Below are positions 1 to 17,318 of a DNA stretch of 23,133 nt, in pieces. How positions within the stretch are numbered: position 1 is the stretch's first letter; every line of letters begins with the position of its first letter. The notes beneath the pieces were generated by a model. That model ran no database searches. It was not told the origin of the DNA and worked only from the letters and a program-made list of their open reading frames with translations. This stretch comes from a virus, in UHGV virus genome UHGV-1818811. One strand, given 5' to 3'. The position numbers and the translations under genes are program-made.

Positions 1-126
1 ATAGCTGCACCTGCACTGCCTGATGTCAGAACAGTATTTTGATGAATTGCCAAGGTTACAATGGCACAAATGCGGCACAGGAGGAAACGTGGTGTATTTA
101 AATATGGGGTAACTCTTTGATTTTAA

Positions 127-171
127 TGGTGCGATAATAGGAGTCGAACCTACGACCTTCGCATTACGAAT
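127..171 (-). other. 3' fragment (about 45 nt) of a tRNA-Thr gene; prophage attachment-site repeat marking the left boundary of the element
   Basis: Minus-strand reading gives ATTCGTAATGCGAAGGTCGTAGGTTCGACTCCTATTATCGCACCA: anticodon loop with CGT, variable loop, T-arm GGTTCGACTCC, acceptor 3' strand and CCA. Sequence at 172-205 does not supply a D-arm or 5' acceptor strand, so only the 3' half is present. Identification as thrW-like is from memory of the E. coli tRNA-Thr(CGU) sequence. Confidence 0.7.
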
Positions 172-533
172 TATAAGAATCCGCTTCTAATTCAAAGCAT
201 TACCCCATCAACACTGCGCTCACACGTCCCACCACATCAAAACATGTAAAGCCTTGCAAGCCATTGTGAGGCCTTATGTGTCTCAGTTTTGTCCCACCTT
301 GTATTATGACTTGCATAGCCAATGAAGATAAACGTGACGACAAACAGCGCAGCAGTTTTCTTTTCTTTCACGACTTTCCCACCTCAACATGCATACCTTT
401 CTGCCATAACTGTAGTGAATGTCTGCTATGACGAACAGCGGACGTTGGACTTTCCAACCTTACAAGGTAATCTAGTTTGCAAAGTTAGCGACCTCGCGCA
501 GACGCACTAATAAAAAGAATAGGAACGGTACAA

Positions 534-3287
534 ATGAACTGGATTGGTTCTCGGTGGTGGAAATTCGACTTCCATAATCACACTCCGGCATCGGACGATT
601 ATGGAAAAGGCCCTAATCAGGCCCAGTATATGCAGATCACTCATAAAGATTGGCTGCTCAACTACATGCGACAAGGCATCGATTGTGTCGCTGTCACGGA
701 CCATAATTCAGGCGCTTGGATTGATCCGCTCAAGCAGGCACTCAAGGAACTGGCATCTGAGAGTCATGAAGATTATCGACCACTCTACTTATTCCCAGGT
801 GTTGAGCTTACTGTTCAGGGGAATATCCATATTCTGGCCATTTTCGGCGAAGACAAGACAACCTCTGATATCGACTCACTGCTTGGTGCGGTCAGGTATC
901 GCGGCACCAAAGGAAAGAGCGACGGCTGCTCTGAATGCTCAGCAGTTGAGGTGATCGACGAAATTGCTAGGTCAGGAGGACTTGCAATACCTGCTCATGT
1001 AGATCAGGCTAGCGGACTTTTTACGGTCTGTACGGGCAACACACTAGAGCAGGTGCTTGACAACAAATGTGTTTTTGCTATGGAAGTAACGGACCTTGCT
1101 AAAGCAAAACCGCAGCTCTATATTGGCAAGAATTTGAATTGGGCAGCGATTCTTGGAACCGATTCCCATCATCCGTCCGGTACCGGAAATCAACGCTACC
1201 CGGGTAGCCATTTCACTTGGGTAAAAATGTCGGAGCCATCTTATGACGGATTACGGCTGGCGCTCGTTGATGGGGCTCTTTCACTGAAGCGGTCGGACAA
1301 CTTCACTGGTGACCCAAATATCCATGGACAACTTGCCATCGAAAGTATCGTGGTTGATGATGCGAAGTACTTAGGACGAGGGCAATCTTTAACTTGTCAA
1401 CTGAACCCCTGGCTCAACACTATCATTGGTGGACGAGGCACTGGGAAATCGACTTCGTTGGAATTCCTGCGGATTGCTCTTAAACGAAAGGGAGAAATCC
1501 CCAAGAGCCTTGAAAAGGAATTTACCAAATACAGTCAAACTTCGAAAGACCGCCAAGATGAAGGGCTGTTAAAAGATTCCACGAAAATAACTGTAGGCTT
1601 TCGAAAAGACGGTGGCCGTTTCCGAATCACCTGGTCTAATACCGACGACATATACAGCATCGAGGAAGAGACCGCTCCCGGAGTCTGGTGTGCTTCCGAG
1701 GGAGACATAGCACAACGATTTCCTGTCAGGATTTACAGCCAGAAACAGATATTCGAATTGGCAAAGCATCCCCAAGCACTCTTGCAGGTTGTCGATGATG
1801 CCCCGGAGGTCAATCATCGTGATTGGCAGCTTAAGTGGGATGAACTGGTTTCCAAATATCTCTCGCTTCGCGCCCAAGAGCGTGAAGTTCAGGCTGGGCT
1901 TCAGGAAGAATCGGTAACCAAAGGTCAGCTTGAAGACGTCAAACGCAAACTCGATGTTTTTGAAAAGGCGGGCCACGCGGATGTCCTTAAGGCTTACCAA
2001 CTCAGACAGAACCAGAGTAAAGCTATGGACTACTGGGTAACGACTTGGGAGGATTCCGCCGAACAGGTCCGAGATATTTCTGGAAGCCTACTGCCAGCAG
2101 AATTGGATTTACAATATTTCGACATTGGGAATGCGGATGACAAAGAACTCTTCGATACCATCAAGGACATCCGTGCGACGTTTGAGAAGCTTCAGACAGA
2201 GATGAACTCGATCGCGCAGCGGATTGATGATGTGAAGAACTCATGGAATCAAACTCGATCAGACTTGGGAATATCGAAAAGAATTACAGCGGCGAGCCAT
2301 GAATACAACGCCCTCCTCGGTCAACTCAGCGCAGCAGACGCAGGTGATCCATCTGCATATGGTGTTCTGGTTAAGCAGCGACAAGATTTCGAAGATAAGC
2401 TCAAGGGATTCGACAAAAAGAGAGAAACTCTTGCGCAGCATCAGAAGAGCGCGGAAGAATACTTGGTCAAACTCCATGAGCATCGAGCATTGATAACCAA
2501 ACTTCGTGAGGACTTTCTCAAGGATACTCTCGTCGGCAATTCATATGTACAGATCAATGTCATTCCGTTTGGAAACAAGATTACGGTTGAGGAAGAATTC
2601 CGTAACCTGATCGGCCGCAGTGGTGGCGGATTTGACCGCGACATTGGAGTTGTTGACGGGGATGAGGGCTTGCTGGCTTATTTAACGCAAGACCAATCCA
2701 ATACTATGGATGATAAAATTGAGAAAATAAAATCATCGCTACTTGCAATCCATGAAAACGATACTATGGCGGTGGAATCCTGCAAAGATCGACGTTTTGT
2801 ATCCCTCATTCAGGGGCTAACTCCGGAACAGATAGATCGAATTCAGTGCTGGTTTCCAGGCGATTCTCTGGATATCAGATATAGCCTCAAGAACGGCGAG
2901 AGTTTCAAACCCGTAGAGCAAGGATCTCCGGGGCAAAAAACGGCGGCTCTCCTTGCATTTATCCTTTCATATGGCAATGAGCCTCTTATACTTGATCAGC
3001 CTGAGGATGATCTTGATAACCACTTAATCTATGATCTTATCGTGACGCAATTGCGTGAGATCAAACAAAAACGGCAGGTTTTAGTAGTCACGCACAACGC
3101 TAACATCGTCGTGAATGGTGACGCGGAAAACGTCATTGCCCTTGATATTCGGTCTGGTCAAACCAGAATTGTGGCGCAAGGGGGTCTTCAAGAACCTTCC
3201 ATACGCGATGAGATATGCCGAGTGATGGAAGGTGGCAAAGAGGCCTTTACCCAAAGATATAAACGAATCAATGCAGCAATCAAATAG
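534..3287 (+). CDS. 917-aa fusion of an N-terminal PHP-family phosphoesterase domain with an SMC/Rad50-like ABC ATPase (Walker A, long coiled-coil insert, signature-like motif, Walker B, H-loop); candidate single-gene anti-phage protein with Ppl-like architecture
   Basis: PHP metal-binding motifs in the first ~210 aa: FHNHT, VTDHN, GVEL, HILA, PAHVD, TDSHH. Walker A IIGGRGTGKST (~aa 300). About 450 aa of predicted coiled coil. C-terminal SPGQKTAALLA (signature-like), LILDQPEDDLD (Walker B/D-loop), VVTHNANI (H-loop). No adjacent SbcD-like partner. GC visibly lower than the phage structural genes. Confidence 0.9.
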   Translation: MNWIGSRWWKFDFHNHTPASDDYGKGPNQAQYMQITHKDWLLNYMRQGIDCVAVTDHNSGAWIDPLKQALKELASESHEDYRPLYLFPGVELTVQGNIHILAIFGEDKTTSDIDSLLGAVRYRGTKGKSDGCSECSAVEVIDEIARSGGLAIPAHVDQASGLFTVCTGNTLEQVLDNKCVFAMEVTDLAKAKPQLYIGKNLNWAAILGTDSHHPSGTGNQRYPGSHFTWVKMSEPSYDGLRLALVDGALSLKRSDNFTGDPNIHGQLAIESIVVDDAKYLGRGQSLTCQLNPWLNTIIGGRGTGKSTSLEFLRIALKRKGEIPKSLEKEFTKYSQTSKDRQDEGLLKDSTKITVGFRKDGGRFRITWSNTDDIYSIEEETAPGVWCASEGDIAQRFPVRIYSQKQIFELAKHPQALLQVVDDAPEVNHRDWQLKWDELVSKYLSLRAQEREVQAGLQEESVTKGQLEDVKRKLDVFEKAGHADVLKAYQLRQNQSKAMDYWVTTWEDSAEQVRDISGSLLPAELDLQYFDIGNADDKELFDTIKDIRATFEKLQTEMNSIAQRIDDVKNSWNQTRSDLGISKRITAASHEYNALLGQLSAADAGDPSAYGVLVKQRQDFEDKLKGFDKKRETLAQHQKSAEEYLVKLHEHRALITKLREDFLKDTLVGNSYVQINVIPFGNKITVEEEFRNLIGRSGGGFDRDIGVVDGDEGLLAYLTQDQSNTMDDKIEKIKSSLLAIHENDTMAVESCKDRRFVSLIQGLTPEQIDRIQCWFPGDSLDIRYSLKNGESFKPVEQGSPGQKTAALLAFILSYGNEPLILDQPEDDLDNHLIYDLIVTQLREIKQKRQVLVVTHNANIVVNGDAENVIALDIRSGQTRIVAQGGLQEPSIRDEICRVMEGGKEAFTQRYKRINAAIK

Positions 3288-3305
3288 AACGGAGTTGCAC
3301 TTGAA

Positions 3306-3388
3306 CGGCAATTGCGCTGAGCTCAATTGCCGCCAATGCTTGGTCGTTAACGTCTGCTCCTGGCACAGGGCTGCTGTTGCAGCCCTGA
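3306..3388. other. Two perfect 9-bp-stem hairpins between convergent reading frames; possible transcript-end structures, not canonical intrinsic terminators
   Basis: CGGCAATTG-(9 nt loop)-CAATTGCCG at 3306-3332 and CAGGGCTGC-TGTT-GCAGCCCTG at 3367-3388. Neither is followed by a U-run on either strand. Confidence 0.3.
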
Positions 3389-3393
3389 CAACC

Positions 3394-3540
3394 TTAGACT
3401 TCAATCGATTCAGAGATCTCTAACGCATCATCGACTTCAATGCCCAGATAACGGAATGTGCTTTCCAGTTTCTTATGACCCAACAGAAGTTGAATCACCC
3501 GAAGATTCTTGGTCAGCGGACAATAGGTGCAACGCCATAT
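3394..3540 (-). pseudogene. Remnant of a tyrosine recombinase/integrase C-terminus (degraded, no intact upstream catalytic region)
   Basis: Minus-strand translation ends ...NLRVIQLLLGHKKLESTFRYLGIEVDDALEISESIEV*, matching the conserved LLGH....T.RY tail of tyrosine recombinases (RY = candidate catalytic Tyr). Upstream sequence in the same frame does not continue as a recognisable recombinase and no long ORF exists. Confidence 0.3.
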
Positions 3541-3847
3541 TGAACCCTTAAGACTAAAGTGGACCGATATAGTAAGCGTTACACTGACCCGTTGCCAGCA
3601 TCGAAATGCCTAAGCTACGAAAACTCTTTGACGGACATAATGTTCCTCATGTTTGCCACATGTCTCCGATTGAGCACAACTATAGTCTGCTGATGAGACT
3701 AATTATGGCACTGAGCAGACCTGCTCGCTAGGCGAGATCCGCTGTGAGCGAATTGCAGAGGTCTCGAATATGCTTGATAATAATGCTTGAAGATATAATT
3801 GGTATGAGCCTGAAAATTTATTTTTAAAGAATTATTAAATACTGCCG

Positions 3848-4384
3848 ATGTTAATAATTATACTAAAAAAAAGGAACATGGAATTTATGTTAAATTTAGA
3901 CGAAATGTGCAGCGCATTAAGAAAACAATACTCTATAACGGCTGGTCAAGATGGTGAGAAATATGCTAGTAGATGGCTGGAAAAATCCAAGTGGAAATTT
4001 GAACATGTTGAGCAAGGAATAAATACCTTATCTGCAAACTTGAAATCATATGGGGGGAAACGCCCCGATTTCATTATTGACGCTGACGAATCCTCTTATA
4101 TTCTTTTAGATGCGAAGTATCACTCAACAGATGGGTGTACCTCCTTTACACTTACTGATTGTGAAATAGGAAAGTATAGAGCACTTCAGCAATTCTTAAA
4201 AAATGTGTATAGTGATTGTACTTTCGAAGTAGTCTTTATGGTGTTTCCGAAAGAAAAAAATGGTGACGAATTTACATTTGTGAGTCTAGATGAGTTTGAT
4301 AAAGGAGAGTGTACGACTCTAGCATCAAAAGATGCAACGAAAATTAGTCTACTCTATCGAGATGACTTATGGTTTAAAAGTTGA
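3848..4384 (+). CDS. Small PD-(D/E)xK-fold nuclease-like protein (NERD / restriction-endonuclease-like core) in an AT-rich islet; family unassigned
   Basis: Motifs AGQDGE (GxxGE), GKRPDFIID (PD) and ILLDAKY (DxK) in canonical order and spacing. Islet ~3780-4520 is strongly AT-rich relative to flanking phage DNA. Start uncertain: ATG at 3848, 3878 or 3887; AAGGAA at 3871-3876 best serves the 3887 ATG. Confidence 0.8.
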   Translation: MLIIILKKRNMEFMLNLDEMCSALRKQYSITAGQDGEKYASRWLEKSKWKFEHVEQGINTLSANLKSYGGKRPDFIIDADESSYILLDAKYHSTDGCTSFTLTDCEIGKYRALQQFLKNVYSDCTFEVVFMVFPKEKNGDEFTFVSLDEFDKGECTTLASKDATKISLLYRDDLWFKS

Positions 4385-4691
4385 TTAATAAAAAACAATT
4401 GGCTTTCACCATTTTTAATTACTTTTCCCAGCATGCCGAAAATGTCTCATTTATTTGAATGATTGTATCTTTAATAGATATATCGCGACTATTCCTAAAC
4501 TTATTTCTAGTTGTTAACAAAACTGTGTGCTATGAATGTCTGCTGTTGGCACATAGCAGTTCTAGAGACAGTGGCGTAAAGTCATGGAGAATCGGTGGAA
4601 GGAGGTGCAAACCCTCTCATACAAAAATGCGTAAAATCAGTAACGGCTGGAAATCATTCAATACTCGCACTATCAAAAGTTCACCAGCCAA

Positions 4692-4730
4692 CCGCGACAC
4701 CTCCTGCATACGACATGTCTGCGGTTTTAT
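4692..4730 (+). terminator. Putative intrinsic terminator for plus-strand transcription, overlapping the stop codon of the convergent invertase gene
   Basis: CCGCGACA (4692-4699) pairs with TGTCTGCGG (4716-4724) with a 1-nt bulge, followed by TTTTATAT. The loop is large (16 nt), so confidence is low. Confidence 0.35.
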
Positions 4731-5281
4731 ATAACCCTGGCTGGAAACCTCTTATACAAAGTTGACACACCAACATCATAGATAATAGCCACCTTCTGGC
4801 GAGGAACGCCTGATGCAATTAATCGCCCGGCCTGCGCCCATTGTTCTGGTGTAAGTTTGGGACGACGTCCACCAATTCGTCCCTGTGCGCGAGCAGCTTC
4901 CAGTCCAGCTTTTGTTCGTTCAACAATCAGTTCTCGTTCCATTTCAGCCAGGGCACCCATCACATGAAAGAAAAAACGCCCCATCGGTGTGCTGGGATCA
5001 ATAGCATCCGTCAGGCTGCGAAAATTAACGCCACGTTCGCGCAACTCCTCAACCAGAATGACCAGATGCCGCATACTACGCCCCAGCCGATCCAGCTTCC
5101 AGACAACCAGAGTGTCACCTGTCGATAATGTCCTGAGCAGTTTTTTCAGTCCCGGCCTTTCGGACTTTGTACCGCTTACCTTGTCTTCAAAAATCAGCTC
5201 GCATCCTGCACAGTTCAGCGCATTACGTTGTAGATCTGTGTTCTGGTCATTTGTTGATACGCGTACATAGCCAATAAGCAT
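4727..5281 (-). CDS. pin: Serine DNA invertase of the Gin/Pin/Cin/Hin family (184 aa from the internal Met of the 196-aa ORF)
   Basis: MLIGYVRVSTNDQNTDLQRNAL... with catalytic Ser in YVRVST, ...LVVWKLDRLGRSM..., GRFFFHVMGALAEMERELI, C-terminal helix-turn-helix GRIGGRRPKL...; near-identical in pattern to Gin/Pin as I recall them. Sits next to an invertible tail-fibre segment. The symbol is generic for the family. Confidence 0.95.
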   Translation of the reverse strand: MLIGYVRVSTNDQNTDLQRNALNCAGCELIFEDKVSGTKSERPGLKKLLRTLSTGDTLVVWKLDRLGRSMRHLVILVEELRERGVNFRSLTDAIDPSTPMGRFFFHVMGALAEMERELIVERTKAGLEAARAQGRIGGRRPKLTPEQWAQAGRLIASGVPRQKVAIIYDVGVSTLYKRFPARVI

Positions 5282-5335
5282 GGTAGATCCCCCTGACAAA
5301 AGCAGGAATGATGCCATTTGCTCGTTATTTCTGCA

Positions 5336-5361
5336 TTTTCATAAACGTTGGTTTGAGAGAA
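5336..5361. repeat. Inversion crossover site (gix/pix-like), left boundary of the invertible segment
   Basis: TTTTCATAAACG TT GGTTTGAGAGAA has the AAAC..GGTTT dyad typical of Gin-family sites. It is an inverted copy of 7181-7206 (19/26 identical; segment-proximal arm 13/14). Confidence 0.6.
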
Positions 5362-5982
5362 GGTTCATTTGGGTTCAGAAATCTGGTTACCTTCACAACG
5401 GCTGGAGTAACAAGCTGGACTGTTCCTGAAGAGTTGCGCAAAGGAAGAAAATGTTACGTCAAAGTTATTGGTGGCGGTGCGTCAGGAGGGATAGGTTCAA
5501 CAACCGCTTCAGCCGTTACATGTGGCGGAGGGGGTGGTGGGGGCGGAGTTGCTGAGGGACTGGTAGATTTAACTGGTATAAACAGTGTTTCGATTACGGT
5601 TGGTGCCGGTGGTGCGCCTGTGTCTGGTATTTCTGTAAACGGTAAAAATGGTGGCTCGAGCAGTTTCGGGACTTACATGTCAGCTTCCGGAGGCTATAGC
5701 GGAGGCCAGCCTTCCGGAGGGTTAGGCGCAGTTGGTGTCGGGGGAACAATTAATACATCGCTTGGGCCAGGTTCTCCAGGTTCCATTGCTTCTGCCGCAT
5801 CGGGGGCTGGTAATGGTGGTTCTGGTGGTGGCCCCGGAGGAGCAGGTTCATTCAGAGATACAGCTAACGGAAAAGCGGTATCAGCAGTTGGGCCTGGAGG
5901 TGGCGGTGCTGGATTATGTCCTAATTCATCAACGGGTCAGTCGGGTGCCGGAGCAGATGGCGCAGTTTATATTTACTGGTGA
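5350..5982 (+). CDS. Silent alternative tail-fibre C-terminal cassette (Sv'-like, glycine-rich receptor-binding domain); no start codon of its own, expressed only after inversion
   Basis: The frame is open from the crossover site and begins GLREGS..., in phase with GLGEGS... at the equivalent point of the active tail-fibre gene. Sequence is Gly-rich (GGGASGGIGS...CGGGGGGGGV...). Opposite orientation to the tail operon. Confidence 0.65.
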   Translation, partial: GLREGSFGFRNLVTFTTAGVTSWTVPEELRKGRKCYVKVIGGGASGGIGSTTASAVTCGGGGGGGGVAEGLVDLTGINSVSITVGAGGAPVSGISVNGKNGGSSSFGTYMSASGGYSGGQPSGGLGAVGVGGTINTSLGPGSPGSIASAASGAGNGGSGGGPGGAGSFRDTANGKAVSAVGPGGGGAGLCPNSSTGQSGAGADGAVYIYW

Positions 5983-5989
5983 GGTTCAT

Positions 5990-6160
5990 ATGTGGGCAAG
6001 AATTGAAGAAAATAAAGTAGAAGAGATAACGGAAATTAATCCTGAAGGAAGATTCCATCCATCATTAATATGGAAAGAATGCCCTGCTGACACACAGCAG
6101 GGGGATTTATATATTGATGGTGAGTTTATTGCGCAGTCTCCGGCAGTTCAGGCCAGATAA
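5990..6160 (+). CDS. Small tail-fibre-assembly-like protein paired with the silent cassette (tfa'-like, 56 aa)
   Basis: ATG 5 nt after GAGG; starts 8 nt after the cassette stop. MWARIEENKVEEITEINPEGRFHPSLIWKECPADTQQGDLYIDGEF resembles the N-terminal region of Tfa/TAC proteins. Converges on and overlaps the 3' end of the active tfa. Short, so uncertain. Confidence 0.5.
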   Translation: MWARIEENKVEEITEINPEGRFHPSLIWKECPADTQQGDLYIDGEFIAQSPAVQAR

Positions 6161-6734
6161 CATCCGGCGCGGTGCTGGTATCTGTTGCCGTCACCGCGTC
6201 AATGTAATCCAGCACGGCGTTAAGTCGGGTTGTTTCTGCCTGCGTCAACTTCCGTCCGGCCTGTAATTTCAGCTGAATCAGACTAATGGAAGCCATTGCT
6301 GCATCAATCAGTGACTGGCGCTGTGCTTCTGCCGCGTCTACTGCGGCACTATGCTGTGCCTCAGTATCCGTCACCCATTTCTCACCATCCCATTTATCAT
6401 ATGGCGTTAACGGGGCGATAGTGGTTGTATTTTCAGGGTAATCACCCGGAGCTGTGATTTCTTTCGATTCTCCTGTTTCGGTGCTATAGATGATTTCACC
6501 GCGATGGTCTGGCACATATTCCCATGAGTTAAAATCTGCAGAACGGCAGATTGCATAACCAGCTTTATGTGTAACTGGTGCATCTAAACAAGAACATGCC
6601 GGGATACCGACGCCAACCGCAAGATATTCAGTTGATGTGGAAATATATTCCCGCGTTTCACCATCATAATTATAAATGGTAATGTCTCCCGCTTTTATGG
6701 CAATGAGTTCGTTATTTAATACGGCTTTATTCAT
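6126..6734 (-). CDS. Tail fibre assembly protein (Tfa)
   Basis: N-terminus [30 protein letters not shown]... and C-terminal ...TDTSTAPDVIWPELP are typical of Tfa chaperones. Start overlaps the stop of the upstream tail-fibre gene (ATGA). Confidence 0.85.
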   Translation of the reverse strand: MNKAVLNNELIAIKAGDITIYNYDGETREYISTSTEYLAVGVGIPACSCLDAPVTHKAGYAICRSADFNSWEYVPDHRGEIIYSTETGESKEITAPGDYPENTTTIAPLTPYDKWDGEKWVTDTEAQHSAAVDAAEAQRQSLIDAAMASISLIQLKLQAGRKLTQAETTRLNAVLDYIDAVTATDTSTAPDVIWPELPETAQ

Positions 6735-7411
6735 CAGGCAGCTCTCACGATATAATTAAAGGCAATGTTACGAGGTCGGTTTTCGTTTGCAGTTGGAACA
6801 ACTCTGGAAGCATCGAATGTTACTCGCTTTGCATAACCACCTTTAATTGAATCAGATGAAGCATCTCCGATGACGCTGGTTGTAAAAACGCCAGAATCAG
6901 AAGGGTAGATATTAAACCTGACATCCACTAATGCACCAATTATATTTCGAATGGCATCTCCCTGTGACGAAAGCAAGCTACGGTTAGTATCTATTCCTCT
7001 TCCGTCATCCCAGCCACGAATGAACTCACCACGTAAATCAGGCAATTTATTTGTCGGGTAAGCCTTTGCCAGTTCCGGGTATTCTTCAGCAGAAAAAGCC
7101 GCACCGTTGCATTTCAGCCAGCCTGTTGGCGGAGTGGCTGAAGGCCACGGAACAGGCACACCAACCGGTAATGCAGAGCCTTCTCCCAAACCACGGTTTT
7201 CGAGAGCCGTTTTCACCGTGCCATCCGATTTGATATCACCAAACGGATTCTTGCGGCTTAACAGCAGAGCACGAAGCGCGGTAAGCAACTGGTCGTTTCG
7301 CCCCTTCTCCAGGCTGGCACCGGATGCCTCCACCACGCTGCAGAGTTCTTCCTGCAACATATCAAAGTAGTCATCATCCAGTGGCAGGTGTGCCAGTCTG
7401 GGGGTTACCAC
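6734..7411 (-). CDS. Tail fibre protein (short constant N-terminus of ~73 aa fused to the currently expressed variable C-terminal collar-type domain)
   Basis: Contains [34 protein letters not shown]...[18 protein letters not shown]..., a phage tail-collar / receptor-binding motif. Inversion site lies inside the ORF at codons ~69-77. Confidence 0.85.
7181..7206. repeat. Inversion crossover site inside the tail-fibre gene, right boundary of the invertible segment
   Basis: Minus-strand reading CTCTCGAAAACC GT GGTTTGGGAGAA; inverted repeat of 5336-5361. The central dinucleotide appears to differ between the two sites (GT vs TT). Confidence 0.6.
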
Positions 7412-7481
7412 GGGTAAAACCGTTCTTACCCGCGCCGAACTTATCCTTCTGCGCGGTTTTCGTGTCTATACGATGCATGGA

Positions 7482-8066
7482 TTACTCCGGATATTTAAAA
7501 ATTACGTAGGTATGCGACGGGCAGAGTTTGTTAAGCACACACTCGACAACGGTGTCGCCCCAGATACGCAGTGCGGAATCACAGGGATCGCCACATGTCA
7601 TCCAGGTGGTGTTGGTGGCGGCTGGCATGTTGACCTGCCAGTAATACCGCCATTCCGGCGCATTCACAGCGTCAGTGCAGGCTGATGAGCAGGTGAACGT
7701 GCTTTTGTCGTATCGCGTGATGGTAGCGTCTGGTCTGCCCAGGGCAGCAAGCTGTGCAAGGTAAAAATCCTCATTGATGCCGCCCGCCAGGTTAACCTTC
7801 GCATCCAGTCGTTGCTGACGCTGGCGAAGGGTCTGTGTCCCTGCGGGAATACATTCATCCGGCAGGCCGCACAGACGCTCCCAGCGGTTTATCAGTTCGG
7901 TGGTGGTGCGCGGATCCAGCTCCCGCATCAGGGCATCCGCACGCTGATGAACGCGGGTTAATGACGGTGCCGCACCGGCAATCGCCGGATCGCTGGCTGA
8001 CCACGCCGGACCGGGGGGCAACAGTGCAGACAACAGACGGATGTAATCATCGTTTGTCACGTCCAT
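7482..8066 (-). CDS. YmfQ-like (Mu gp48-like) tail/baseplate protein
   Basis: [22 protein letters not shown]... matches my recollection of the e14 YmfQ / Mu gp48 family. Position immediately upstream of the tail fibre and downstream of the J-like baseplate gene. Confidence 0.8.
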
Positions 8067-9115
8067 GAAATCGTCCCCAGAACCGCCAGTTCATTTTTTG
8101 CAATGGAGATATTGTCTGCCGGTGCAAGCAACTGATGGCTGTATTCCCCGTTCGCACCGGAAATCGCCTCACTGATACGCGACACCTTCAGTTCTCCCTG
8201 CGGATAACCATCACGCAGCAGGAACGAACGCAACTCCGCGGTGATGGCAGCCCGTATTTCCGGTGTATCCGGCGTCACGCGGATATGAAAATCCACCGTA
8301 TGTGCCACCGGCCTGAACACATACAAGTCAGAGCCTGCCACCGGGGCCAGTGGCCCGATATGTTGTCTTGCCGCCGTTTCCGTTGATTCTTCCGGAATGG
8401 GATTAATCAGGTCACTGCTGGCAATCATCACACCGACAGTTCCCGTTCCCATCCAGTGACGGTATGTCCATGCGCGGGTAATGCCGGGCACTTCTTTAGC
8501 CCAGACGACATAGTCCCCGTCAGCCCCGCCCTGCGGCGTCCAGTAATACCGCTCAATGACGCGGGCGCGCCACGTTTCCAGATCTTCAGTATCGAATCCG
8601 CCAGTCAGGGTATCTGCAACACCGGAAGACGGCAGACCATTCACCGGCGTGACCAGGATTAATGCCGTACCGTCGTCAGTGTTACCGACCGCGCCTGTAG
8701 TTGAGCAAGTGATCGGCACACGCAGGACACCACCGGAGCTGGTTGCATCGGCAGTTGCCGTGTACTGAACCAGGTCATCGCGCTGAATCACGCTCCCGGC
8801 AGTCACCTTCAGGCCATCGCTGACACCTTCCCAGCGCATATACCCGCTGGCAGCCGTGGCCCCCTTGCGCGGACACCGTTTCATCGCAGCATGTCGCGCC
8901 AGCCAGGACTCATCGCACAGGTCAGGCAGCATATTCATTGCCAGATAATCGATGTACCCGTAGACCGTATGCAGCGCCGCCGCATACACCTTTGCCCGCA
9001 CGTCTTCATCCATGCGCCGGAGCGTGTCGCTGACGTCCAGCCTGGCGAATAAATCGTTACGGAGCATACTGATATTTTCTGCCAGCGTCGGGCGCTGAAA
9101 TTCACTGTCCGCCAT
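8057..9115 (-). CDS. Baseplate J-like protein (Mu gp47-like)
   Basis: 352 aa; position between the gp46-like and YmfQ-like genes; overlapping start/stop codons typical of a baseplate operon. Confidence 0.85.
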
Positions 9116-9530
9116 GCGTTATCGCACTCCACAGATCATCAAAAGAAATCATTACCGGTCCGTCACGACGCCAGAGAGTGATACTGTTACCCAGTTCATT
9201 AATCCCGGTACGGCGGATATCCAGATCAATACGGAACACCACGCCGTCATCAATCATCCATTGCAGGCATTCGCGGATATACCCCCTTACCGTCTGCACC
9301 AGTTGATTGGTCAGTTTGCTGCGCTGAAGCAGCCACAGTCGGGAGCCGTAACGGTCATTCTGTACCGCAGGCCAGGTATCCCCCCACCATCCCATCGGGA
9401 CATCGGCGTTGTCATCAGGCTCCGCCCGCCGCCAGGTAAACAGGGAAATCACCACGGCGCGGGTCAGCGGATCCAGCTGTGCGCTGGCGCAGGTGCGTTT
9501 ACCGTTCACCGTCAGCCACAGTTCCATCAT
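9102..9530 (-). CDS. Baseplate protein, Mu gp46 / P2 W-like
   Basis: 142 aa, translationally coupled between spike and J-like genes; synteny-based. Confidence 0.75.
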   Translation of the reverse strand: MMELWLTVNGKRTCASAQLDPLTRAVVISLFTWRRAEPDDNADVPMGWWGDTWPAVQNDRYGSRLWLLQRSKLTNQLVQTVRGYIRECLQWMIDDGVVFRIDLDIRRTGINELGNSITLWRRDGPVMISFDDLWSAITHGGQ

Positions 9531-10075
9531 GCCTCCATCGCTTTATCAGGTTTGTCGGTGTTACTGCCCTGACCGTTCTCTCTGTGACGATGCCCGTTAT
9601 AGGCAAGCCGCATCGCTGACATGGTGGTACCGCCGGAGTCGCACAGGTCTTTCACCTGTCCGGTCACTTCCAGGTCCATTTCAAAACGTGCTCTGGGCGC
9701 ATTGCGAAACGTGATCGTTTTACCTGCACCGTCCACCACGATCCCCTCCCGGGTCAGCGTCACAGACTGCCCCTGATCGTCATAGACAGCCACCTCACCC
9801 GTCTGCAGCCCTTTCAGGCGGTAGCGCCGGTCCGACACCGTAACAACCACCGCATGAGAACGGTCGCCATCCGGAAACAACACCACCGCTTCCGCACCGC
9901 TGTTTGCCCTTGCGGTAAAACCGTAGGGTTCAAGATGTTCAACCCCGGCTTTGGGTTCACCGGCAATCAGGGACACATCCACAGTCTGACATTTCGTGGC
10001 GGCACTGATGCTTTTCACCACTGCCCGCCCAATCAGGCCGAGAAGTTGTCGCTGCATGGCTTCAATCGTCCTCAT
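9527..10075 (-). CDS. Baseplate assembly/spike protein V (Mu gp45-like)
   Basis: 182 aa; position and size match the Mu-type baseplate spike. Confidence 0.8.
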   Translation of the reverse strand: MRTIEAMQRQLLGLIGRAVVKSISAATKCQTVDVSLIAGEPKAGVEHLEPYGFTARANSGAEAVVLFPDGDRSHAVVVTVSDRRYRLKGLQTGEVAVYDDQGQSVTLTREGIVVDGAGKTITFRNAPRARFEMDLEVTGQVKDLCDSGGTTMSAMRLAYNGHRHRENGQGSNTDKPDKAMEA

Positions 10076-11154
10076 CAGAACGGGTCCTCCTGTACTCTGG
10101 CTTTTTTCTTTTTCCGCGCGCCGGGGGCTTCGGGTTCAGGCAGATAAGCATCAGGTGGGCCGACACGGATTTCCGTCAGGGTGCCGTTCTGGTCCTGAGT
10201 AAACGTGACTTCCGAGACAAGCAGTTCGGTATTGTCGAAACCACAGACCGGATCGAAGACAATCACCCGCTGGTTGGGCTGCCACAGCGTACCGTTACCC
10301 TGTCGCCAGCCCTGCACCACATAGGTGGTTTCATCCGTCCGCGCCGCCCGTTGTCGGGCTTCAAAGTCAGCACGCGCAATACAACCTGCCCCCGTGGCCT
10401 GCCCTGTCTGCCGGATATACATCGGACGGTAACGGGCAATAAATGCATCCTCTGTGCGGGCCCGCAGCGCGGTGGTGGTGGCCTCACCGAAATCATCGTC
10501 GTTTCCGGCACGCTGCCCCGCCACCTGGTAAACAGAAAACCGCTCCCGGATACTCTTCTCCGTATCACAGGAAAGGATGTTTTCCCCAAGTACCAGCGCG
10601 GTATGTGCCCGCGTTGAGCCAATACCGCCAATCACCAGCCTGCCGTGCGGGTCGTCGTAAGCCAGCGCCTGCTGCTGACCGAGTATTTTGTTGATTACCT
10701 CAATCACCGTTTCACCGTGATCAGGCTGAACATCAGGAATAACACCCGATGGCGCACCGCTGTTCACCACCTCAATGCCGAAAGGCGCAGCAAGCGCCTG
10801 CGCAATCTGCACCAGCGAGCGTCCGTTAAACTGTGTCGGTTCGGCTGCACAGTCAATCAGGTCAGCCGTCAGACTACGTCCGGCAATACCGGTGCTGACC
10901 GAACGGGCATCGTAACGAACGGGAGTCGCCTCCACCCAGCCGGTGATCACCAGCTCATCACCAATCAGCACTTCCACTTTTGAACCGTTTTTAATGCGCG
11001 GCTGAAGCGTGGTGATACCCTCATCTCCCGGCCACTGGCGAGTGATCTCCACACTGAAATCCCGCGCCAGCCGTTCAATACCGGCACCGATGCGCACCGA
11101 TGTCCAGCCATTCCACTCCCGGCCATTTACCCGTAGCGTGACATTGTCGTTCAT
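10075..11154 (-). CDS. Baseplate hub / late control D-like tail protein (Mu gp44/P-like)
   Basis: 359 aa; synteny directly downstream of the DNA-circulation gene; basic C-terminal tail ARKKKKARV. Confidence 0.8.
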   Translation of the reverse strand: MNDNVTLRVNGREWNGWTSVRIGAGIERLARDFSVEITRQWPGDEGITTLQPRIKNGSKVEVLIGDELVITGWVEATPVRYDARSVSTGIAGRSLTADLIDCAAEPTQFNGRSLVQIAQALAAPFGIEVVNSGAPSGVIPDVQPDHGETVIEVINKILGQQQALAYDDPHGRLVIGGIGSTRAHTALVLGENILSCDTEKSIRERFSVYQVAGQRAGNDDDFGEATTTALRARTEDAFIARYRPMYIRQTGQATGAGCIARADFEARQRAARTDETTYVVQGWRQGNGTLWQPNQRVIVFDPVCGFDNTELLVSEVTFTQDQNGTLTEIRVGPPDAYLPEPEAPGARKKKKARVQEDPF

Positions 11155-12527
11155 TGCACTGGCACCTTCAGAGGGATCACCGGCACAAAGCCGGGATGCG
11201 TAATGGCATTACGCCGGATAATGTCCGCGTCACGCGCCGCGTTATCAAACCAGGTCGCCGCCAGCACCAGCGCGGGTAAAACCTCATCCGGTGTGCGCTG
11301 AATGATCCGTGCAGACTGTTCAAGGCGCGTGTTGATATCCGCATTCAGATCTGCTTTCACCCGGCGCAGCGCCAGAAACAGCGCATCACTGGTTGTACGG
11401 GACAACTCCTTATCAATTGCCGTATTCAGTGTGTCGCGAATGTCAGTCAGTTCTTCCCACGTCGGCAGGTCAACCGTGTTTTTCACCGCCGGTGCATTGT
11501 TCAGTGCCGGATGCGTGACGGAAGGCCAGCCAGTGCTCTGCGCGGGTGTTGTTGCCTGCCCCACTGCGGAATTCTGCATCACCGCGGAAGTTGTTGGCGC
11601 AGGCAATCGGGTGACGGCATACGCCGCTTCGCTGATTGCGGTCGTACGAAGGGTGCTGGCAACCACGTTACGCTGCTGCGTCGCCGTGGCGGTGGTTTTA
11701 CTGTCCGTTTTCCAGACGCCGCGCGGTTGCAGATCGCTGCCGAGGCTGACACCGGAAAGCGTTTTGATCATGGTGACCAGGTCGCTGGCGTTACCATAAA
11801 GGCGTTTCCCGGTACGCCACATTTTCTGCACCTGCTCAACGAAATTTTTGCCTGAGGATGGCGGCGGCAGAAGTACCGAGATATCCCCCTGCAACAGCCT
11901 GGCGGCATCCGATACGGCAGAATCCACCACTTTCATCGCATCAGAAACATACCCAAGCATTGTGCTGGCATTACCGATAACGTCGTTCTGCACGAAATCC
12001 GCCACACCATCGATACTGAAACCGCTGAAGCTGTCACTGATGCAGTCATCCAGTGCAGAACAGGATGACATCAGCGTCTGCGCCGTCGCCGCACCTGATG
12101 TGGGGTAAGAGAGTTCTCCTGCTTCGACAAACTTCAGGTCAAAGCGGACAATACGCCCTTCACTTTTCGATGTGCTGACCCGAACTTCCCCGTCAACACA
12201 GACTTTCAGCTCACCATATGTCGGGTGGACAAGCGTGCCGGGACCGGGTTTATTCAGCGCTTCAATCAGGCGATCGCGCTGGTCAAAGCAGTCATCTCCC
12301 ACCACATAAGCTGTGATGGACGGGCGGAAAGTGACTTTTCCCAGATCTTCGGTATAGGGCTTGTCGCGGTTCGGGTATTCATGTGTTTCCACACGGCGAC
12401 CGGTTCCCGCACTTTCTTCTTCAACCTTAAACGGCACGCTGCGAAATGACGCATCCTGAAGCCTGTCTTTCCACGTCATATAAGTCCCATATTTATTATC
12501 AGTAGTAATATTTACTGGTAATGCCAT
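11151..12527 (-). CDS. DNA circulation protein (Mu gp43/N-like)
   Basis: 458 aa; N-terminal region MALPVNITTDNKYGTYMTWKDRLQDASFRSVPFKVEEES...HEYP is typical of Mu-like DNA-circulation proteins; follows the tape-measure gene. Confidence 0.8.
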   Translation of the reverse strand: MALPVNITTDNKYGTYMTWKDRLQDASFRSVPFKVEEESAGTGRRVETHEYPNRDKPYTEDLGKVTFRPSITAYVVGDDCFDQRDRLIEALNKPGPGTLVHPTYGELKVCVDGEVRVSTSKSEGRIVRFDLKFVEAGELSYPTSGAATAQTLMSSCSALDDCISDSFSGFSIDGVADFVQNDVIGNASTMLGYVSDAMKVVDSAVSDAARLLQGDISVLLPPPSSGKNFVEQVQKMWRTGKRLYGNASDLVTMIKTLSGVSLGSDLQPRGVWKTDSKTTATATQQRNVVASTLRTTAISEAAYAVTRLPAPTTSAVMQNSAVGQATTPAQSTGWPSVTHPALNNAPAVKNTVDLPTWEELTDIRDTLNTAIDKELSRTTSDALFLALRRVKADLNADINTRLEQSARIIQRTPDEVLPALVLAATWFDNAARDADIIRRNAITHPGFVPVIPLKVPVQ

Positions 12528-12589
12528 AATTTGTAGTGGTAGCCATTACCATTTGTAACCATATAAATTATTAGCATTAAGGTGATAAC

Positions 12590-13036
12590 ATGAAGAAATT
12601 ATTAAAATGGATTTTATATATTTTCATCGGGTTGGTGATTATTGGATATTTTGCAGGCAATAACGATAAAGGCTCTAATTCTTCATACTCATCCGATACG
12701 GAAGCTGCGGCACCGCAAAAAGAAATCTACAACACTACTGCTCGACAGCTGTTTAAAGAGTATGAAGAAAATGAAGTCGCTACCGATGAACAGTTAAAAG
12801 GTAAATTAATCGCCGTTAGAGGTATCGTACAATCCATTGATAAGGACTTTACTGACTCTATAATTATTAAATTCAGAACTGAAAATGAATTCATGCCAGC
12901 AAGAATGGAGATGCAAGACTCTGAAAAATCAACAGCTGCTGCTCTTAAAAAAGGAGAACAAGTAACTGTTATTTGCGAAAAAATGTCCAGAATTGTCGGC
13001 TCCCCATCAGGCCGAAATTGCGTGTTCGCACAGTAA
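12590..13036 (+). CDS. Moron: 148-aa membrane-anchored protein (N-terminal TM/signal-anchor, ~115-aa extracytoplasmic domain, possibly an OB-fold / tRNA_anti-like family member); function unknown
   Basis: MKKLLKWILYIFIGLVIIGYFAG = hydrophobic N-terminal helix. AAGGTGA Shine-Dalgarno before the ATG. AT-rich, opposite strand to the flanking tail genes, own terminator immediately downstream. Confidence 0.8.
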   Translation: MKKLLKWILYIFIGLVIIGYFAGNNDKGSNSSYSSDTEAAAPQKEIYNTTARQLFKEYEENEVATDEQLKGKLIAVRGIVQSIDKDFTDSIIIKFRTENEFMPARMEMQDSEKSTAAALKKGEQVTVICEKMSRIVGSPSGRNCVFAQ

Positions 13037-13039
13037 GTT

Positions 13040-13070
13040 CAGGGAGGGACGGCCCTCCCTGTTCGTCTTT
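13040..13070 (+). terminator. Rho-independent terminator of the moron gene
   Basis: CAGGGAGGG-ACGG-CCCTCCCTG (perfect 9-bp GC-rich stem) followed by TTCGTCTTT, 4 nt after the moron stop codon. Confidence 0.6.
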
Positions 13071-14901
13071 ACCTAAATCTGGTGTACCCAACATCGTGAT
13101 TAATATCAATGCCACTGGAACGTGTTTCCGTAACCCGCATACCTGGTGGCATATTCATAAATGAAACCTTGATCTCGCCATCAACTTTTGGCGCAATAGC
13201 TTTGTTAATCATGAAGGGATTCGGGCCTGTGGCATCGGAGGCGTTGTTTGACTGAGCCGGATCCACCGCCGGATAAGGTGTGTATCCCCGCGTCGGTATT
13301 CCCGTCCCATAAGCATCATAAGCACCCGCGCCCCACTGCGCAGAGTTAATGGCATCGACCGTGTCACCGGAACTGTCGGTAAACCACTCAATAATTGGCT
13401 TCAGCTTGTCCCACATATCCTGAAACCACTTAACAACCTGCCCCCAGTTATTGATCACCATCCCCAGCGGCGACCAGGCAAAAACTTTCTTAAGGAGTTC
13501 CCAGCCAGCCTCAAAATAAGGACCAATGGTTTCCCAGAGTTTCTTAAAATAAGGTCCGACAACATCCCAGTTAGTGATAATTAATCCCGCAGCCAGGGCT
13601 ATCGCCGTCGCAATCATGCCAATCGGCGTCATCGACATGATCCTGCTGACAATACTGATGGCACCGCCAACGCCCATCAATCCCAGTTTCAGAATCGCAA
13701 GACCGGCAGCAAGCCCGACGACGCCGCGAATAACCCGGGGATTTTCATCCGCAAACTTCGTGAATTTTTCCCCCAACTCCCCCAGCCATTGCGTGATATT
13801 TTTAGCGTCACCAGAAAATGCGCCGCCAATAGCTGCAAGACCGTTAGTTGCGGTCCCCGTCATTGCCTCCCACAGGTTGGACAGCGTACCAAGCTGAGCC
13901 TGAACACGTTTATTCAGGCTGGCCTGTTTATTCATCTTCTGCTGGATCTGATCGTAGCCATCCTTTCCTTTATCGATCAGGGCATTGACCACCTGAAGGG
14001 TTTCGGCATCATCACCAAATATTGCCTTAAGTACGCCTGTTCGCTTAACGTCGGTCAGTTTTCGCAACTTTGCCAGTTGCCTGAACATGTTATCAAGACC
14101 GCCAAAACTTCCTTTGCCGTCAGTAAAATCGAGCTGTACCCCGAGTTTCTGGCGGGCCATGATTTTATTGACGTCCCTGATTTTCTTAACGCTTAATCCG
14201 GACTGGATAACTTTTCGCAGGGCGTTACCTGCCGACTCCCCGTTCATCCCCATCTGATCCATCATGACGCTGATGGGGGCAAGGCTCTGTGCAGCCTGAA
14301 GACCGTCCTTGTTCACCATCTTCAGAACAGAGCTGGTTTTAGTGAAGAAGGACAACATGTTGGTATCGTCAACGCCCAGATAAAACGCCTTCTGGATAGT
14401 GTCGAACAGCCCCATCATGTCTTCTGACGCCGTTCCGGTAGCATCCTGCATCTTTGCGGCAAACTCGGCAGCCGCTTCCGGTGTTTTTTTCAGTTGTACC
14501 GCAAGATAAGCTGTCGCTTTACCCACACCGCCAAGAATGTTTTCTGCCGGGATCCCCTGACGCACCAGCATCTGCATCATGTTCTGGAAATCAGCCGTTG
14601 TACCGGGTAGCTGATTACCCAGGCCAATAGCCAGTTTATTGATGTCCTGAAAGCTCTTTCCAACCTCGCCGTTCGCATCCATCATGGCGACTTTCAGCCC
14701 GGTGGCGGCGTTTTCCTGATCGGCATAAGATTTCAGGGAAAGCGTCAGACCCGCTGCCAGTCCGCCACCAAGCGCCAGCCCACCCTGTGACGCTTCTTCC
14801 GCCTGGCGTTTAAATCCCCGGATTTTCTTTTGCATTTTCGACAGCGCGGGAGAAAGCCTGTCGACACCGGTGATCAACGCCTTAAGCTCAAATTCCGCCA
14901 T
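13069..14901 (-). CDS. Tail tape measure protein
   Basis: 610 aa, Ala/Gly/Leu-rich with predicted long helices and C-terminal hydrophobic segments; lies directly after the frameshifted chaperone pair. Confidence 0.85.
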   Translation of the reverse strand: MAEFELKALITGVDRLSPALSKMQKKIRGFKRQAEEASQGGLALGGGLAAGLTLSLKSYADQENAATGLKVAMMDANGEVGKSFQDINKLAIGLGNQLPGTTADFQNMMQMLVRQGIPAENILGGVGKATAYLAVQLKKTPEAAAEFAAKMQDATGTASEDMMGLFDTIQKAFYLGVDDTNMLSFFTKTSSVLKMVNKDGLQAAQSLAPISVMMDQMGMNGESAGNALRKVIQSGLSVKKIRDVNKIMARQKLGVQLDFTDGKGSFGGLDNMFRQLAKLRKLTDVKRTGVLKAIFGDDAETLQVVNALIDKGKDGYDQIQQKMNKQASLNKRVQAQLGTLSNLWEAMTGTATNGLAAIGGAFSGDAKNITQWLGELGEKFTKFADENPRVIRGVVGLAAGLAILKLGLMGVGGAISIVSRIMSMTPIGMIATAIALAAGLIITNWDVVGPYFKKLWETIGPYFEAGWELLKKVFAWSPLGMVINNWGQVVKWFQDMWDKLKPIIEWFTDSSGDTVDAINSAQWGAGAYDAYGTGIPTRGYTPYPAVDPAQSNNASDATGPNPFMINKAIAPKVDGEIKVSFMNMPPGMRVTETRSSGIDINHDVGYTRFR

Positions 14902-15061
14902 GTGTGCGTTTCTCCTGCTCTATCCTGTTTGCCTGACTGACCAGCAAGGGAATTTCACTGATCGGCATATTCAGCAATTCGAAGGGATTAATGCGCCAGT
15001 AGCTGGCGCAGTCAAAGAAGCGATCAGTGAGGTATTCAGCCGTCAGGCCTGGAGGAAAAAA
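14888..15061 (-). CDS. -1 frame extension of the tail assembly chaperone (frameshift product, G/GT-like pair)
   Basis: The overlap with the upstream chaperone ORF contains the slippery heptamer T_TTT_TTC (minus strand, 15061-15055). The -1 frame continues ...WFFPPGL... to a stop just inside the tape-measure start. Confidence 0.6.
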   Translation of the reverse strand, partial: FFPPGLTAEYLTDRFFDCASYWRINPFELLNMPISEIPLLVSQANRIEQEKRTHGGI

Positions 15062-17164: not shown

Positions 17165-17318
17165 CGGTATTCACCTTTTTATTCACGCGCCGGATATCAC
17201 CCGCTGCTTCACGGCGCAGCCAGTAGTTGTTCTCGTCAACATTTCGCCCTTCGGCGGGCAAAAGGTCGCCGCGGGCAGGGTCAGGAACTGACCGCCCTTT
17301 AACAGGTTTGACAAACAT
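17148..17318 (-). CDS. Small Mu-like phage protein (DUF2635-like, 56 aa), absent from the ORF track because it is under 60 aa
   Basis: Minus-strand ORF MFVKPVKGRSVPDPARGDLLPAEGRNVDENNYWLRREAAGDIRRVNKKVNTDDDKL overlaps the sheath start. Resembles small proteins that precede sheath genes in Mu-like tails (recollection). Confidence 0.55.
   Translation of the reverse strand: MFVKPVKGRSVPDPARGDLLPAEGRNVDENNYWLRREAAGDIRRVNKKVNTDDDKL

Follow-up and report, generated by a model that had tools for sequence, protein, structure and literature searches.

The right end of the prophage UHGV-1818811 raises two questions: what has accumulated between its serine invertase gene pin and the attachment (att) repeat, and by what means the genes at this position are replaced. 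The DNA analysed, here called the window, is a stretch of 23,133 nucleotides from this prophage, and coordinates are window positions from 1 to 23,133. Sequence comparison places the window at the right end of an Escherichia coli SfV/SfI-like myovirus prophage integrated at thrW, with positions ~7,000-23,133 of the minus strand 97% identical to the late genes of SfI, SfII, SfIV and SfV, the Shigella serotype-converting myoviruses. It is nearly certain that positions 447-4534 constitute a cargo (moron) hotspot at the att-distal end of this prophage. The hotspot holds two cassettes, one encoding a TrlF-family, Ppl-like protein (cargo 1) and the other a small predicted nuclease (cargo 2), each delimited by short palindromic repeats of a single family.

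The boundaries were established by comparing positions 1-5400 with 5,426 complete E. coli genomes by megablast. The whole region was present in only 13 of these, and in other genomes both ends were common with differently annotated genes between them. Eleven E. coli loci with differing gene content were fetched for comparison, and in most of them positions 1-446 and 4535-5362 align at 80-95%. Since homology stops at ~446 and resumes at ~4535 in nearly all of the eleven (breakpoints of single alleles at ~431-452, mostly 446, on the left and at 4535-4547 on the right), the variable interval is taken to be 447-4534. The initial annotation had extended the hotspot from 172 to 4726; a variable interval does lie there, but its real bounds are narrower, as relatives also share 176-446 and 4535-4726. 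In IMG/VR, a search based on Pin and blind to cargo added 20 loci possessing both the att-proximal arm and pin, with 15 distinct gene sets among them. Across the 33 related loci sharing arm and pin, 25 distinct gene sets and 57 protein clusters were found, including many known defence families, in agreement with the earlier expectation that relatives would carry different systems at this site. It must be held against this diversity that the E. coli loci were hand-picked for differing annotation and hence overstate the population figure.

It could be supposed instead that the two cargo genes are a fixed functional module of the phage lineage rather than variable cargo, as the 13 genomes hold both together at 99.4-99.8% identity. 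This explanation retains practically no probability and is refuted by the hotspot comparisons, which place 24 other gene sets at the same position. Moreover, the TrlF gene occurs alone on plasmids, another prophage hotspot has a cargo 2 homologue and no TrlF, and the GC content of the two genes differs by 13 points. The same occurrences support the proposal that the two cassettes were acquired independently. Tabulated across relatives, the aligned terminus is neither a fixed two-gene module nor uniform in composition. The profile of GC content and codon usage is as heterogeneous as initially described, with 47.5% GC for cargo 1, 34.6% for cargo 2, 49.7% for pin and 55.1% for the late region; in codon usage, cargo 1 stands at a distance of 0.110 and cargo 2 at 0.169 from the late genes pooled, both outliers beside the late genes' own 0.058-0.096. 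The annotation was also right that two plus-strand cargo genes (534-3287 and 3848/3887-4384) oppose the minus-strand late operon and that a recombinase remnant, 3394-3513, the last 39 amino acids of a tyrosine recombinase, lies between them.

The alleles of the hotspot matched a range of anti-phage systems in PADLOC: Avs2, a ThsA-like SIR2 protein, a retron-type reverse transcriptase-Toprim protein (retron I-C), a NucC/PD_DExK-like protein, Septu PtuA beside PDC-S15, a type II restriction-modification (R-M) pair, a PD-T7-1-like protein, an OLD/AriA-like ATPase and PD-T4-3. The locus therefore combines shared flanks with differing content that is rich in anti-phage systems, as judged by PADLOC matches. 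The hotspot is variable and many of its alleles are defence systems; in this it is ordinary and expected, a new instance of a well-known kind of defence hotspot. Conserved phage genes likewise frame a variable, defence-rich interval in the prophage hotspots described by Rousset et al. 2022 (PMC9122126) and Vassallo et al. 2022 (bioRxiv 10.1101/2022.05.12.491691), and there, too, a slot has room for one to three systems. The present hotspot differs from those in belonging to an SfV-like myovirus with a Mu-like tail and in lying between pin and attR. Unlike the hotspots themselves, the way in which their content is exchanged so cleanly is not well documented; Rousset et al. 2022 (PMC9122126) mention no palindromes or recombinases and suggest recombination at the cos end.

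Two observations concern the layout of the hotspot in relatives. PD-T4-3 (GIY-YIG, 257 aa) is present in 15 of the 33 loci, always between the equivalent of 4535-4726 and pin. Since it stands directly beside pin, after the conserved segment, it marks a third, separate slot, which is empty in the window. In addition, EC31 is the only genome of the 5,426 in which the hotspot anchors are adjacent. It was considered as an empty ancestral hotspot and rejected, as the junction is a deletion across CATA(C/G)C microhomology in which both junction repeats are gone; the prophage concerned is degraded and sits elsewhere in the chromosome.

The initial annotation had likened the arrangement to the mcrA-bearing end of e14, and the parallel is correct in position, although the junction repeats are not common to e14. 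In K-12 e14 and in the intact e14-like phage vB_EcoM-689R6, mcrA directly follows pin. The pin-mcrA end of e14 occupies the same genome position, from the tail-fibre and invertase genes to att, with host-benefit cargo transcribed apart from the late operon; e14 differs in integrating at icd. In SfV the genes gtrA, gtrB and gtrV (gtrABV) occupy the equivalent slot, likewise as host-benefit cargo with transcription apart from the late operon; SfV differs in having no pin and in a cargo that modifies the O-antigen. The junction palindromes are absent from the cargo regions of both e14 and SfV.

Table 1. Features at the right end of the prophage in the window.
Feature	Position	Strand	Basis
Host chromosome flank, 3' of a yagP-like LysR pseudogene and paoD	1..116	.	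annotations in related genomes
att repeat, displaced 3' part of tRNA-Thr(CGU) thrW	117..173	-	alignment to K-12 thrW
att-proximal conserved prophage arm, left hotspot anchor	176..417	.	92-95% identity in most E. coli loci compared
Junction palindrome B, left border of cassette 1: AATGTCTGCT-ATGACGAAC-AGCGGACGTT	418..446	.	0 mismatches to arm consensus
Cargo 1, 917-aa TrlF-family, Ppl-like protein	534..3287	+	NCBIfam, PADLOC, Pfam
Hairpin 3' of cargo 1, GGCAATTGCGCTGAGCTCAATTGCC	3306..3333	+	fold of 3285-3400
Junction site A, recombinase-proximal variant AACGTCTGCTCCTGGCAC with hairpin CAGGGCTGCTGTTGCAGCCCTG, right border of cassette 1	3349..3388	.	
Remnant, last 39 codons and stop of a 200-aa tyrosine recombinase	3394..3513	-	translation, tblastn
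Degenerate junction palindrome B, left border of cassette 2: GAGATCCGCT-GTGAGCGAAT-TGCAGAGGTCT	3735..3764	.	fuzzy motif scan, both strands
Cargo 2, small PD-(D/E)XK nuclease-fold protein	3848..4384	+	conserved motif
Junction palindrome A, right border of cassette 2 and of the hotspot: AATGTCTGCT-GTTGGCACAT-AGCAGTTCTA	4535..4564	.	
Conserved segment 3' of pin, right anchor	4535..4726	.	homology in relatives; strong minus-strand fold
pin, serine DNA invertase bordering the hotspot on the phage side	4727..5281	-	Pfam
Single Pin-type crossover-like site TTCTCTCAAACCAACGTTTATGAAAA	5336..5361	-	sequence unlike the junction palindromes

The repeats at the borders of the cassettes (Table 1) conform to the consensus AAYGTCYGCT-YYTSGCWCAK-AGCRGACRTT, ~30 bp long, in which 10-nt inverted arms enclose a 10-nt asymmetric spacer. 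The spacer occurs in two variants, GGCAC (A) and CGCTC (B, reading the other strand), and the order on the plus strand is B-genes-A for every cassette, regardless of gene orientation. In the window the inverted pairs are 418-446 (B) with 3349-3378 (A), the latter an A-oriented site at the right border of cassette 1 with a hairpin at 3366-3388, and 3735-3764 (B) with 4535-4564 (A). With up to 4 arm mismatches allowed, 51 sites, many of them homologous copies of the borders, were counted in 108 kb of hotspot DNA vs 1 in 249 kb of adjacent phage DNA and 1.35 in shuffled hotspot DNA. Independent internal sites between open reading frames (ORFs) are present in the window and in alleles L017, L021, L053, L061, L067 and L069.

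The cassette of cargo 1 was also found on plasmids. It is 97.9% identical over window positions 418-3367 on pKPC2_Vir_090515B1 and 91.6% identical over the same stretch on pPE131_1. The homology to the plasmids begins at 418 or 432, in the left palindrome, and ends at 3367, within the next one; the flanks are unrelated. Homology breakpoints coincide exactly with the repeats, and the same cassette is present on other replicons, cut at those repeats. On pKPC2_Vir_090515B1, a carbapenemase/virulence hybrid, a cytosine methyltransferase, a type II restriction enzyme and TrlF stand in a row (L095 2129-9573), the array lies between two small serine recombinase genes, and near-perfect junction palindromes flank its TrlF cassette at 6001-6030 and 8933-8962. 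A type II R-M cassette common to this plasmid and allele L052 was considered and rejected, there being no nucleotide match.

These observations suggest a model in which the content of the hotspot would change by recombination at the repeats, whole cassettes being swapped between phages, plasmids and chromosomal islands. Each cassette has a B copy on one side and an A copy on the other, and the decayed recombinase gene, with its own A-type site, lies between the two; in the model a small tyrosine recombinase, supplied in trans in the present case, would catalyse the exchange. That the cassettes are exchanged at the repeats is probable. The two further steps, that exchange is site-specific and that this recombinase catalyses it, are considerably less secure and are weighed below.

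The same repeats delimit cassettes at the Z/fun hotspot of P2, between tail-fibre and sheath genes. In P2 one copy of each of the two variants flanks fun(Z), in opposite orientation as in the cassettes of the window (L223 833 minus, 2930 plus), and the corresponding hotspot of a P2-like prophage (L221) reads B[DUF3800]A-B[hyp]A. The cassettes in the window share with the Z/fun type the inverted flanking copies, the repeat family of P2 fun(Z) and the occurrence of the same cassette on other replicons. According to a review (PMC8987985), inverted repeats that bacterial genomes also contain stand on either side of the genes at this non-essential locus of the phage; the review attributes the repeats flanking fun(Z), and exchange between P2-like phages and enterobacteria, to Nilsson, Karlsson & Haggard-Ljungquist 2004, and it states that site-specific recombination occurs at them. 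The repeats found here are very probably those attributed to Nilsson et al. 2004. The repeat layer thus extends earlier work rather than being a discovery; what may be added to that work is the SfV-like hotspot, together with the contexts on plasmids and islands. A literature search with the literal repeat sequence returned no match.

The distribution of the repeats was examined further with an exact-pattern scan of one genome per species (GTDB), which returned at least 120 repeat loci against about 9 expected by chance in our own calculation. Among the loci listed, the repeats span many Enterobacterales, the Nitrosomonadaceae and many Alphaproteobacteria, and the copies in Enterobacterales are paired, A being followed by B 40-42 nt later to form a 72-nt composite. 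The composite parts arrayed cassettes of 0.6-5.7 kb with diverse cargo that includes autotransporter, MFS, RelA/SpoT-like, OLD-like and DUF4145 proteins. It was found in 986 of the 5,426 E. coli genomes, at a median of 2 and a maximum of 7 places per genome; 84 places are on plasmids, and nearly all of the places listed are without an annotated feature. A gene family common to the neighbours of the GTDB repeats was sought and rejected, the neighbours being diverse among the loci listed. Alphaproteobacteria (Pseudolabrys, Hyphomicrobiales, Xanthobacteraceae), Nitrosomonadaceae and one gammaproteobacterial metagenome-assembled genome abound in the palindrome AATGTCCGCTATTGGCACAAAGCGGACATT (L100, L108, L127, L135, L176 and ~80 other GTDB loci), which is covered by no Rfam family and the copies of which are often in direct orientation ~0.9 kb apart beside ABC-transporter, LysR and reductase genes.

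This distribution bears on a different explanation, in which the palindromes are passive dispersed repeats of the repetitive extragenic palindrome (REP), REPIN or miniature inverted-repeat transposable element (MITE) type, or bidirectional insulators, that travel with accessory genes, and swaps are made by ordinary homologous recombination, whether by RecA or of the phage Red/RecT kind. The 30-bp repeats or the longer flanks would then provide portable homology with no need for a dedicated enzyme. The excess of at least 120 loci over about 9 in alpha-, beta- and gammaproteobacteria is what such repeats would produce, as is the presence of the composite at many positions in 986 of 5,426 E. coli genomes, and the inverted pairs 40-42 nt apart, at up to 7 places per E. 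coli genome, have the inverted-doublet form of REPINs. In the Alphaproteobacteria listed the palindromes adjoin ordinary metabolic genes, and most of the GTDB loci listed have no recombinase within 8 kb; both points weigh against a dedicated exchange system, and the repeat could accordingly be a dispersed element of a generic kind. The conserved flanks in the hotspot, 270 bp and about 750 bp, would also be enough for double crossovers. Flank-mediated exchange would not, however, explain the TrlF junctions shared by plasmids and phage, which have unrelated flanks and at which homology breaks off within the palindromes. Nor are strictly opposite loop variants around every cassette, or the co-conservation of site and recombinase gene across genera described below, expected of passive repeats, and the GTAG head typical of REP and REPIN elements is not visible in the consensus. 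The arms, moreover, show no covariation (counts for Y4/R21 of CG 69, CA 43, TG 20 and TA 5, with outer positions near random), which led us to reject a hairpin under structural selection; this fits a duplex binding site and proves nothing about the enzyme. Passive repeats of this type are a possible but somewhat improbable account, and the same low probability is given to exchange through portable homology in the repeats or flanks. A reading of TGGCAC as a sigma-54 promoter was likewise discarded, as direct inspection shows a GG-GC spacing that deviates by one and no GG in the B variant. Rfam gave no family, one tRNA excepted, in window positions 1-5400 or in six repeat-bearing loci.

The candidate enzyme is known in the window from the remnant alone, the translation of which ends in ...TKNLRVIQLLLGHKKLESTFRYLGIEVDDALEISESIEV* and is 95% identical (tblastn) to residues 162-200 of a 200-aa protein encoded in hotspot allele L004. 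The family of this protein comprises 7,997 proteins at an E-value of 1e-10 or lower; the best 120 of the 7,997 are 73-94% identical and come from many Gammaproteobacteria, with Escherichia, Proteus, Providencia, Pantoea, Idiomarina and Pseudoalteromonas among the genera. An intact recombinase gene lies between an A-type and a B-type site in hotspot allele L004, in the lambdoid prophage L219 and in the chromosomal island L220, and the ~690-bp recombinase module is 93-95% identical among these three unrelated contexts. The site and hairpin 3' of the recombinase gene were also found in E. coli, Phytobacter, Providencia, Idiomarina and marine contigs. This co-conservation of recombinase and site across genera is the main argument, a circumstantial one, that the enzyme uses the sites. 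In loci L229, L230, L233 and L234 (~5600-5660), the GC hairpin CAGGGCTG-N4-CAGCCCTG is fused to a palindrome half-site 15-25 nt past the recombinase stop codon, and in Idiomarina, Providencia and the marine contigs the recombinase with its hairpin and half-site adjoins arsenic/copper-resistance or two-component genes.

Several properties of the enzyme and the sites weigh against the proposed exchange and its catalysis by this recombinase. The 200-aa protein is a catalytic domain only (Pfam PF00589 and no other domain) and has no N-terminal core-binding domain; the arm-spacer-arm geometry of 10-10-10 is unusual for tyrosine recombinases; homology breaks 2-3 nt within the spacer, off its centre; and the copy at 3735-3764 is degenerate, the weakest of the four. 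Since only a remnant is left in the window, any exchange at present also needs a copy elsewhere in the cell. Taken together, the small tyrosine recombinase may be the exchange enzyme, although this is less probable than not, and site-specific exchange by this protein is put forward with equal reserve.

The arrangement also bears comparison with integrons. The likeness to integrons lies in the promiscuous arrays of cassettes, the imperfect palindromic sites, the tyrosine recombinase gene beside a variant site and the occurrence of cassettes in different replicons. The sites in the hotspot differ in being 30 bp long (72 bp as pairs), with no fit to RYYYAAC/GTTRRRY and with arms that do not covary; a site stands at both ends of each cassette, in inverted orientation, and the genes, of which a cassette can have several, are in either orientation. 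An attC identity was rejected on inspection, the core fitting only the left site of the window and not those of other alleles, with orientation and size wrong. The recombinase is likewise not an IntI-type integrase, with 200 aa and PF00589 only, and a remnant in the window, vs about 320 aa for IntI. Also comparable are the pdif modules of Acinetobacter plasmids and engineered lox/FRT cassette exchange, in which modules between oppositely oriented sites of two kinds are swapped by double crossovers; the pdif/XerC/D sites (11-6-11) are unrelated in sequence to the repeats described here. That the two heterospecific palindrome variants and the 200-aa recombinase form a natural system of recombinase-mediated cassette exchange, distinct from integrons, is an unlikely reading. 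If true, defence and other accessory cassettes would shuttle among the SfV-like pin-att, P2 Z/fun and lambdoid hotspots, plasmids and islands across Gammaproteobacteria, and the missing mechanism for the turnover of defence hotspots would be supplied.

The small serine recombinase Pin was weighed as a further candidate for mobilising or inverting the defence cassettes. The pin gene adjoins the hotspot in 33 of 33 loci, the TrlF array on the plasmid lies between two small serine recombinase genes, and TGTCYG in the palindrome arms recalls the resolvase half-site TGTCYNNTA. Small serine recombinases are also published markers of defence loci, for which mobilisation has been postulated (PMC13552941), and a role for them was postulated by Andersen et al. 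2026. Such a function of Pin is nevertheless very improbable. The sequence of the Pin-type crossover-like site at 5336-5361 shows no relation to that of the palindromes, and Pin sites were rejected as their source for the same reason; no serine recombinase is annotated in the fetched stretches around the repeat-bounded cassettes of P2 and P2-like prophages; identity to Pin is no more than 35% and 25% for the two recombinases of the plasmid; and e14 has pin and mcrA and no palindromes.

The recombinase remnant, which lies between the cargo genes and points towards att, also permits the view that cargo 1 and the remnant are the wreck of a separate island or satellite integrated in tandem at the thrW att site, since thrW is a shared integration site, occupied by CP4-6 in K-12. 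This view is, if anything, slightly less probable than a role for Pin. The window has a single att copy (the att 31-mer occurs once, with none expected by chance), the 270-bp arm beside att is conserved whatever the cargo, the 200-aa recombinase is found between junction repeats in the lambdoid prophage and the chromosomal island and not at att, and many alleles have no trace of a recombinase.

Exchange at the repeats remains the preferred reading, and it has practical consequences. In at least two unrelated coliphage families and in plasmids, one repeat family marks the limits of the cassettes to the nucleotide, with a candidate enzyme in view, and two plasmids and one 200-aa protein would suffice to put the question of exchange to a direct test. 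Uncharacterised defence genes, for example cargo 2, could be sought by means of the repeats, which could also explain the movement of a Ppl-like gene between a KPC/virulence hybrid plasmid and a prophage.

As for the cassettes themselves, each is probably an anti-phage defence system, judged from family and context. Cargo 1 unites in one protein an N-terminal PHP phosphoesterase and an ATPase of the ABC/SMC type that contains a coiled-coil insert. The PHP motifs FHNHT, TDHN and TDSHH can be read in the translation, HxH included, and the split ABC ATPase shows Walker A GGRGTGKST, signature SPGQK, Walker B LILDQPEDD and H-loop THN, its two halves divided by the coiled-coil insert. Pfam matched AAA_21, SMC_N and AAA_23. 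The protein passes NCBIfam NF045780 (TrlF family) with 649.3 bits over residues 5-912, the cut-off being 350, and residues 4-912 match the PADLOC Ppl profile PDLC02208 at positions 3-892 of 894 (6.5e-157). Ppl was reportedly described by Gao and co-workers in 2020. It is a single-gene anti-phage system of uncharacterised mechanism (PMC11482910), and cargo 1 has the same single-gene PHP and ATPase architecture over its full length. Identity with Ppl is opposed by the score of 630.2 bits against NF042955, NCBI's Ppl equivalog, the cut-off of which is 1,000. In the proposed function of this cassette the ATPase would sense infection and the PHP domain would degrade nucleic acid. A literature search on TrlF found nothing relevant. 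TrlF is annotated as split, with a separate PHP-domain protein, in UPEC_U013 and is broken by an IS3-family insertion element in an O103:H2 strain, which suggests decay of the cargo in some lineages.

Cargo 2 is 178 aa long from the first ATG and 165 aa from the RefSeq start at 3887. It had no match in Pfam, NCBIfam or PADLOC, and only 31 homologous protein clusters were found, all hypothetical. Residues E24, GGKRPD61 (P60-D61) and D75-A-K77 are invariant in 22 homologues, giving the catalytic motif of PD-(D/E)XK nucleases within a restriction-endonuclease-like alpha/beta fold. Cargo 2 is an unannotated, predicted nuclease of the Hjc/RecU-like PD-(D/E)XK kind, which would cut phage DNA or branched replication intermediates. 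The homologue without TrlF is 69% identical and lies at the int-icd end of e14-like prophages (L224-L227, 4001-7156), beside a 279-aa protein and an AAA_15/AAA_21 ATPase; this end, opposite to the pin end, looks like a second cargo hotspot of the phage group, with weak repeat-like sites only.

The initial annotation had stated that each cargo gene ends at a hairpin. This holds for cargo 1, where positions 3285-3400 fold with -47.2 kcal/mol (z = -3.73) into two strong hairpins, 3306-3333 and 3366-3388, but not for cargo 2 (z = +0.68 and -0.31). The hairpin at 3306-3333 lies in the stretch common to the plasmid TrlF copies. A consensus scan for intrinsic, T-tract terminators found none after either cargo gene or in the cargo 1 hairpins.

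The att end of the window agrees with integration at thrW. Positions 117-173 correspond to nucleotides 31-76 of K-12 thrW, with one base deleted, and 11 nt downstream, and ARAGORN detected no whole tRNA in the window. This is the displaced 3' fragment of a tRNA expected at the far end of an element integrated at thrW, and the identification of a tRNA-derived att fragment at this position was therefore correct. In related genomes paoC, paoD and a truncated LysR pseudogene are annotated directly left of the match, and homology at the left end begins at window position 1 or 5. Of the 5,426 E. coli genomes, 1,019 contain the att-proximal arm with a coverage of at least 80%. At the other anchor, the minus strand of 4640-4730 folds with -34.5 kcal/mol (z = -4.21), far below shuffled sequences, and part of the conserved stretch 3' of pin is annotated by PGAP as a capsid-protein pseudogene in some genomes.

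The pin product, named pinE in RefSeq, matches Pfam Resolvase (6.5e-51) and HTH_7 (1.6e-13), as expected of the serine invertase of a DNA inversion system. Of the two inverted crossover sites that bracket a tail-fibre segment in such a system, one was found: the site at 5336-5361, which we take to be of the pix/gix type, has no inverted partner of 16 nt or longer in 5250-7500, and a more diverged partner is possible. In the stretch 5308-5982, homology to otherwise identical genomes ends at 5362, and a glycine-rich ORF (PF21722) stands in place of the gp53-like tail-fibre tip of those genomes. It may be that Pin no longer has an invertible substrate in this prophage, or that the segment has been replaced.

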